Source: Octopus vulgaris
Taxonomy: Eukaryota
Reading direction: 5' to 3'
Assembly: GCA_951406725.2 (NCBI GenBank)
Contig: OX597842.1
Location: 2,728,001-2,792,000, forward strand
DNA length: 64,000 bases
The notes below the pieces were generated by a model. That model was not told the origin of the DNA. It worked only from the letters and a program-made list of their open reading frames with translations, and ran no database searches. The position numbers and the translations under genes were made by a program. Each line of letters begins with the position of its first letter. The first letter of the stretch is position 1. Below are positions 9,037 through 9,494 of this stretch, piece after piece.

Positions 9037-9494
9037 TTAGTTTTTCTTGGAGGGCTGGCCGTGATCTAGTAATCTCAAGATTAATCAGCCGAAATTACTA
9101 CGATGATCCGGTTCTTGACTGAAGACTGAGGGTTTCGAATGTCCTGTCCGTGTTTATTGTATCGTCTTCTAAGAGTTATACGTTCTTGTCCATGTTGTAT
9201 TTTTCTACATACCTTAACATATATTCCAGGCGCCACGTACCCTCTTAACATTAATGTGAGCACATATTCTTAATAACTGGTACGACTCTTTGTTTGTCTC
9301 TCTCTCTCTCTCACTTTTACTTGATCTGTCCCCTTCTCTCTCTACTCATCCTCTTTTTCTCTTCTCTTTCCTCTGATTCTTTGGTCTAATCTTCCACTAC
9401 CCTCCTAATTCTTTGTCTCGCTCTGCACTCACAGGTCAATCTTCGACACCCATCCCTTCTTTCTCTCTCTTCTCTCTCTTTGTTGCGTTTGTCC

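Follow-up and report, generated by a model that had tools for sequence, protein, structure and literature searches.

The window analysed here is a 64,000-nucleotide stretch of Octopus vulgaris DNA (assembly GCA_951406725.2, contig OX597842.1, positions 2,728,001 to 2,792,000), and all positions below are counted from its first letter. On its forward strand lies a 1031-bp element (9034-10064) with direct repeats at its ends and (TA)n runs on both sides. The 5' direct repeat, or pseudo-LTR (9034-9217), and the 3' one (9881-10064) are identical across all 184 bp, and they enclose a non-coding part (9218-9880) with CT-rich tracts. The open frames of the element gave no Pfam match. Also, no reverse transcriptase (RT) or endonuclease was matched above the Pfam cut-off in 150 of the 154 window frames of at least 70 aa. 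A diverged solitary relative, 72-73% identical to the main repeat, was found on the minus strand (54421-54718). It consists of a single repeat with about 100 upstream bases and ends in (TA)n, and no Pfam match to an RT or endonuclease was found upstream of it. On both sides (8880-8985 and 10110-10260), the element is bordered by a SINE-like repeat that is abundant and dispersed, recurring at about 30 other places in the window. A long near-perfect hairpin with arms of about 45 bp (46367-46492) scored against microRNA models below their thresholds and is probably a MITE-like inverted repeat.

An earlier note on this DNA had described four helices, a to d, together with the strings GAAA, UC and CUGAAGA, and all of these were located in both repeats. 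In hammerhead numbering, stem III corresponds to c/c' (with A15.1-U16.1), stem I to d/d' and stem II to a/a' (with G10.1-C11.1); each helix occupies the position of its stem relative to the core, and G10.1-C11.1 is kept. In the 3' repeat, stem II (9900-9937) pairs a (9900-9905) with a' (9932-9937), carries G10.1-C11.1 on top and encloses b, c, C17 (9921), d and a UUAA link. Helix b and stem III (9906-9958) pair 9906-9913 with 9952-9958 and 9914-9920 with 9941-9947, respectively, with GAAA at 9938-9941. Stem I and the core strand (9922-9972) follow from the pairing of d (9922-9927) with 9960-9965 and from CUGAAGA at 9966-9972. The same core region spans 9053-9125 in the 5' repeat, with G10.1 at 9053, predicted cleavage after C9074, G12 at 9091 and CUGAAGA at 9119-9125. 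The claim that the diverged relative keeps all four helices was borne out, since every pair is complementary: a (54596-91/54564-59, G10.1 at 54596), b (54590-84/54544-38), c (54579-76/54555-52, C17 at 54575) and d (54574-69/54536-31), with the core strand CUGAGGA complete at 54530-24. The core letters C3 U4 G5 A6 N7 G8 A9, G12 A13 A14 A15.1 and U16.1 H17 are present in all three window copies, as CUGAAGA or CUGAGGA plus GAAA and UC.

The hammerhead segments run in a reversed cyclic order, as had been proposed. A structure descriptor for this order matched exactly three sites in the window (both repeats and the minus-strand relative) and none in 60 Markov simulations (7.68 Mb, both strands). 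The motif has the order S-G-C with two pseudoknots and falls outside hammerhead types I, II and III, which have the order C-G-S, a three-way junction free of pseudoknots and an Rfam match. An Rfam search, which the earlier note had proposed, found no match in 9030-10070 at E up to 10, and no ribozyme family was among the 150 of 183 window matches listed. Nested MFE z-scores were modest (-0.8 to -2.4), as expected because two of the helices are pseudoknots. The reversed order itself is not new. The available text of Eckert et al. (2023; PMC10085705) describes types SGC (HRIMA-1), CSG and GCS as non-circularly permuted hammerheads built from blocks S, G and C, and reports that SGC and CSG cleave in vitro at the predicted site and that both require a helix connecting the far ends of stems I and II. 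The suggestion of a permuted or trans-assembled ribozyme stands as the best reading, but the reversal cannot be its novelty.

Two helices absent from the earlier note were found next to the core. Hairpin e (9837-9899; 9837-9846 with 9890-9899, 10/10 pairs) comes just before G10.1, and helix f pairs the bases after A9 with the leader. The 5' arm of f (9823-9836; outer part 9823-9830, inner part 9832-9836) pairs with 9975-9979 and 9982-9989 (13/13 pairs), its 3' arm (9975-9989) starts 2 nt after A9, and hairpin e abuts f on one side and G10.1 on the other. Both e and f appear in the unconstrained MFE of the 3' repeat with upstream internal sequence. Enforcing f, e, b and c gave -51.8 kcal/mol, compared to -52.5 kcal/mol unconstrained, with pseudoknots uncounted. 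The full order of the motif, from 5' to 3', is f-e-a-b-c-H-d-link-a'-GAA-c'-b'-d'-CUGAnGA-f', in which a stem II strand is at the 5' end, CUGAnGA is at the 3' end and the strand is opened between A9 and G10.1. The earlier note had cautioned that A9 is not contiguous with stem II. The break is indeed present, but it is not left open, as helices e and f are predicted to bridge the gap. Judged from its sequence, the motif is a circular permutation of the reversed hammerhead family, opened between A9 and G10.1, and the novelty is this break, not the reversed order.

The 5' arms of f and e come from the last 60 bases of the internal part, and the 3' repeat is the copy with the complete six-helix context. 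The 5' repeat contains a, b, c, d and the core, without the 5' arms of e and f; this truncated copy begins within the loop of hairpin e. The mean probability of being unpaired for CUGAAGA was 0.30 in the 5' repeat and 0.52 in the 3' copy, and in the nested MFE of the 5' repeat the leader pairs with the core, which is buried. A leader-core pairing inside the repeat was considered as a conserved switch and dropped, since its register differs between the two window versions. Relative to the diverged copy, the loop of hairpin e is larger owing to a short internal duplication within 9857-9898, whose two copies lie at about 9857-9874 and 9881-9898. The start of the 5' repeat is the exact start of the second duplicate copy (the counterpart of 9881-9898).

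Helices f (54651-45/54513-07 and 54640-36/54522-18) and e (54634-27/54604-597) are also intact in the minus-strand relative. Between the two window versions, there are two both-side changes in b and one each in c, d, e and f, and there are one-side changes in a and b. The short helices and the modest nested z-scores would fit chance complementarity in a repeat. However, both window versions have the exact core and all six helices, both-side changes are seen in five of these (b, c, d, e and f), the descriptor found nothing in the simulated sequence, unrelated core matches fail the stems (see below) and the layout recurs with new sequences in several phyla. These data make chance an extremely improbable explanation.

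The element belongs to a multi-copy family, as indicated by 1931 matches to 9575-10066 in the contigs of one sequencing run (X3). Six sites within 9823-9989 had variants at 3% or more in the family contigs; four of these are unpaired, two keep their pair and none is in the core. At 9918, 9955 and 9969, the contigs indicate at least one further repeat subfamily mixing features of the two window versions. A raw DNA run (X22), labelled with the species of the best holder, yielded 51 partial reads, which all fall on a T-rich stretch and none on the motif; run X20, with only a small share, carries no weight as evidence. RNA was represented by one contig, which touches only 9660-9775; contigs by nature do not show RNA ends, and no RNA run gave ends or circles.

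Metagenome contigs were scanned using the core letters only, and 120 of about 320 matches were examined. Sixty-eight belong to one family, mostly from two assemblies, and the 52 unrelated matches served as the control. Core conservation in this set is circular, since the letters were fixed by the pattern, and it was not counted as evidence. Stem I had at least 5/6 pairs in 64 of the 68 family copies compared to 3 of the 52 unrelated matches. The corresponding counts were 63/68 and 1/52 for the stem III extension (at least 4/5 pairs), 50/68 and 7/52 for stem II with the upstream strand (6/6 pairs) and 39/68 and 2/52 for the strict descriptor. Helix f holds in 48 of the 51 copies that are long enough, and G10.1 in 57 of 64. 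Three stems adjoining the core, with A15.1-U16.1 and G10.1-C11.1, are thus found in both the window and this family. Across the 35 full-length copies, 94.3% of cells pair in the six helices, compared to 25-46% in slid controls. Two subfamilies are distinguished by both-side changes in f, b and d, and one outer c pair breaks; this covariation is one evolutionary split, seen in copies mainly from two samples, and not many events. The six-helix layout is the same as in the window, the helix sequences are unrelated, and a covariance model of the family did not find the window copies.

One metagenome locus connects the motif to a protein. At L232, the motif lies about 250 nt behind the end of an ORF, and this ORF end shares 77% identity with the C-terminus of P0006. 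The P0006 protein is 953 aa long and contains a DKA motif and RT motifs, and its N-terminal part matches GIY-YIG (E 7e-4, short of Pfam's cut-off). This predicted domain layout is that of Naiad Penelope-like elements (PLEs). L232 was the only one of 69 family-like loci with a recognised Naiad ORF end upstream, where the longest upstream frame was checked, and Rfam gave no match at the motif in five related loci. On the minus strand of the same locus (L232:4937-5659), the truncated Naiad copy stops within or next to a frame that weakly matches Mab-21 nucleotidyltransferase (E 0.027, below cut-off). In viral contigs, four pattern scans yielded 171 loci, none with the motif except one AT-rich match at relaxed thresholds, and a Naiad protein search of the viral contigs yielded no locus. 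In genome contigs, the protein search gave seven loci, none of which had the motif; one ends right after the ORF.

According to the available text of Craig et al. (2021; PMC8557442), Naiads prefer a (TA)n target, and no canonical hammerhead is reported in them, although 10 entries are flagged as having a core and 8 a half core. For 52 of the 54 Naiad consensus sequences supplied with that paper, we parsed the final 450-600 bases; this was done by eye and not computed, which applies to all the Naiad ends described here. The split-core order, with different helix sequences, was seen in 10 of the 52 ends, from five phyla: the ctenophore Bfor (stem I of only 2 bp); the cnidarians 3_Chem, Amil, Anas and 2_Movir; the acanthocephalan Plae; the crustacean EuTe; and the cephalopods Obim, Ovul and Esco (with a weak stem II in Esco and a weak f in the other two). 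In all 10, a begins with G, e and f are present and H17 is A, C or U, never G. Naiad_Plae and Naiad_EuTe have zero unpaired bases in the links A9-f', f-e and e-G10.1. An intact type CSG was read in seven nematode Naiads (Naiad_Parc, Naiad-1/-2/-3_Nbra, Naiad_Hcon, Naiad_Hpol and Naiad_Asuum; File S5). Naiad_Smim, Naiad_Sdum and Naiad-1_Dst have an SGC-like order with a long insert between stems I and II; in Naiad_Sdum, U3 and A8 replace C3 and G8, and the 3-8 pair is kept. No hammerhead was parsed in the remaining 32 of the 52 ends.

Some Naiad ends carry other structures. Right after the ORF, bivalve, hemichordate and two Clytia ends have a different conserved structured motif that is common across phyla. 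The ends of Naiad-1_Movir and Naiad-4_Chem bear a possible likeness to twister ribozymes. Naiad-like elements were also found in contigs of two genomes titled bacterial MAGs (L292 and L294-L297, several in one genome; L298), which suggests animal contamination. About 450-540 nt after the ORF match in L292 and L294-L297, and also in L298, the 3' region has a long conserved stem-loop that is likewise found near the 5' end of Naiad_Tama; L292 had no Rfam match.

The Naiad ends also bear on whether the motif could be an ordinary type SGC, with stem II formed from the bases that directly follow CUGAnGA and with an incidental upstream strand a. In its favour, the S-G-C order agrees, a shifted register could let CUGA after A9 in the main copy pair with UCAG, and the spider and ostracod Naiad ends look like SGC by eye. 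However, such pairing is absent from the diverged copy and from all 68 family copies, none of which reaches 5/6 pairs with the bases after A9. Instead, these bases pair upstream as f, with compensation, and complementarity of the upstream a is full or almost full in nine of the 10 split-core Naiad ends and weak in one. An ordinary type SGC is, therefore, very unlikely.

We consider it likely that the motif is a split-core hammerhead capable of self-cleavage, with the cut predicted after C9921, in the terminal repeat of a non-autonomous Naiad-type Penelope-like retrotransposon. Self-cleavage in some form is highly probable. Dependence of the window element on Naiads is quite probable, though slightly less so. 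The element has the (TA)n insertion and the direct terminal repeats, as from partial tandem duplication with a truncated 5' copy, and it does not have the Naiad ORF layout (N-terminal GIY-YIG, CxC, DKA, C-terminal RT). Since it has neither an ORF nor detected sequence likeness to Naiads, and the covariance model misses it, the proposed link between the window and Naiads is one of architecture.

In hammerheads, the 2'-OH of C17 makes its attack under catalysis by G12 and G8, and A9 forms a pair with G12 and is stacked on G10.1-C11.1. In the split-core motif, f and e would stack and, substituting for the absent backbone link, keep A9 next to G10.1. Helix b would fold back and act as a strut between the far end of stem III and those of stems I and II, as it does in type CSG. 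The backbone at 9/10.1 is tolerant, because an extra base between these positions is common or tolerated in PLE hammerheads, according to the available text of Cervera and de la Pena (2014; PMC4209133). Cleavage would trim read-through or tandem transcripts to 847-nt units, the length between the predicted cleavage sites of the element. The unit ends could stay paired via a, b and c, and ligation into a circle for the Naiad RT would be possible. The available texts of two papers propose such a role, the cutting and circularising of tandem transcripts, for PLE hammerheads (PMC4209133, PMC6765202). The 5' repeat, without the arms of e and f, is predicted to be inactive as an enzyme, although its loop could possibly be cut in trans, with C9074 as a possible site.

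The earlier note had worried that the monomer geometry looks strained. With all pairs formed in a monomer, a rough estimate gave a needed span of 45 Å compared to 38 Å available, and 64 Å compared to 39 Å for the long-c family. This shortfall is relieved if stem III frays to about 4 bp, which is already its length in the diverged copy. Because the monomer needs such fraying, a two-copy kissing assembly is a real rival, in which the active site forms only between two repeats and tandem or dimeric transcripts alone are cut. The f-e-b multiloop of one copy, holding strands a and d'-CUGAnGA, would kiss the hairpin loop of another (H-d-link-a'-GAA). Several observations suit this assembly: in the examples read, a and d are at most about 7 bp long, a length suited to loop-loop pairing; the b-c junction has no unpaired base on one strand in several families, favouring a straight helix and straining the monomer; the energy of the nested f-e-b-c scaffold differs from the MFE by less than 1 kcal/mol; and the 5' repeat could serve as a substrate only. 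PLE hammerheads have also been reported to function as dimers (PMC4209133 and PMC6765202, available texts). Against it, the 4- and 7-nt links of the diverged copy relieve the strain. The same concern applies equally to type CSG, in which helix b has 7-8 bp and only 2 nt connect it to stem III; this type cleaves in vitro from single-unit transcripts, though dimers were not excluded (PMC10085705, available text). On balance, we regard an obligate two-repeat assembly as rather unlikely.

Another possibility is that the fold is real without being a free-standing ribozyme; it would cleave only with a bound Naiad protein or would act as a signal for binding or for the start of reverse transcription. 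The hammerhead of anole Penelope needed protein to cleave and was dispensable for insertion in vitro (PMC11167929). Eight of nine tested Xenopus retrozymes did not cleave, and the literature searched gave no tested precedent for an A9-G10.1 break. However, the core letters and G10.1-C11.1 persist across five phyla even though the sequences of the helices differ, a pattern that is difficult to account for without catalysis, and H17 was never G in the 10 split-core ends. We consider this alternative improbable, and the self-cleaving split-core hammerhead remains our preferred reading.

With somewhat less confidence, we favour a broader proposal: that this is a seventh natural hammerhead arrangement, in which the catalytic strand is interrupted at A9/G10.1 and a helical junction takes the place of the link, and that it is one of a Naiad-borne reversed set (split-core, CSG and SGC-like) across animals. 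It may cleave only when two repeats kiss, thereby sensing tandem transcripts. No A9/G10.1-split hammerhead and no reversed hammerheads in Naiads were found in the literature searched, which included few subscription papers and no figures. The available texts of PMC3088659, PMC4209133, PMC13725137, PMC10162972, PMC7936874 and PMC6765202 mention no natural helix at 9/10.1, and PMC13725137 cites its reference 13 for hammerheads with additional helices.

If the split-core reading is true, it would overturn the assumption that the CUGAnGA strand must run straight into stem II, which the six types in the available text of PMC10085705 make with at most 1-2 inserted bases. It would also mark a natural site for grafting whole helices onto the hammerhead core. 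Reversed-order hammerheads, so far from uncultured RNA and DNA fragments and one bacterium, would be placed in animal genomes at high copy number. The report of Naiads thriving without hammerheads (PMC8557442), which was used to argue that these ribozymes may simply parasitise PLEs, would be revised. Because nematode Naiads carry CSG by eye, Naiads may be the source of the two orphan soil-metagenome sequences to which type CSG was previously confined in the available text of PMC10085705.

The window element shares features with several known systems, compared here as their available texts describe them. Like retrozymes (plant LTR and animal non-LTR; bioRxiv 10.64898/2026.07.22.740005), it is non-coding, about 1 kb long and likely non-autonomous and has two ribozyme copies in direct repeats; the animal retrozymes are also linked to PLEs. 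However, the animal retrozymes described so far form tandem arrays and carry type I hammerheads, the plant ones have type III hammerheads and depend on Gypsy, and that text describes no reversed or split-core retrozymes. The pseudo-LTR hammerheads of Penelope elements (PMC4209133) likewise lie in terminal direct repeats and conserve G10.1-C11.1. In contrast to the window motif, with its reversed order, stable stem III and two whole helices at 9/10.1, those are minimal type I hammerheads in the standard order with a tiny palindromic stem III. Naiads (PMC8557442) share the (TA)n target, the partial-tandem direct repeats and, near the 3' end of 10 consensuses, the motif architecture; the window element differs in being 1 kb long, without a GIY-YIG/RT ORF or detected sequence likeness to any listed Naiad.

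The closest comparison is with types SGC, CSG and GCS (PMC10085705, available text). The reversed cyclic order S-G-C and the two pseudoknots in the core are common to all of these and the window motif. As in SGC and CSG, the link between stems I and II is short (AUUAAU in CSG-1, UUAAU in the window), and helix b is the bridging helix, placed after a and before d' and joined to stem III by a short link. Both helix b, with its both-side changes, and the short (4-nt) stem I-II link were found in the window. The differences are that the window strand is opened after CUGAnGA, the 5' strand of stem II comes first, the gap is predicted to be bridged by e and f, and both strands of b are connected to stem III. 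An unbroken block C, with CUGAnGA followed by the stem II strand, was found in none of the 68 family copies and in neither window version. Going by these features, the motif would work like the SGC and CSG types without being a member of them. The examples of those types come from metatranscriptomes, soil metagenomes and one bacterium, whereas the window type is found in animal retrotransposons.
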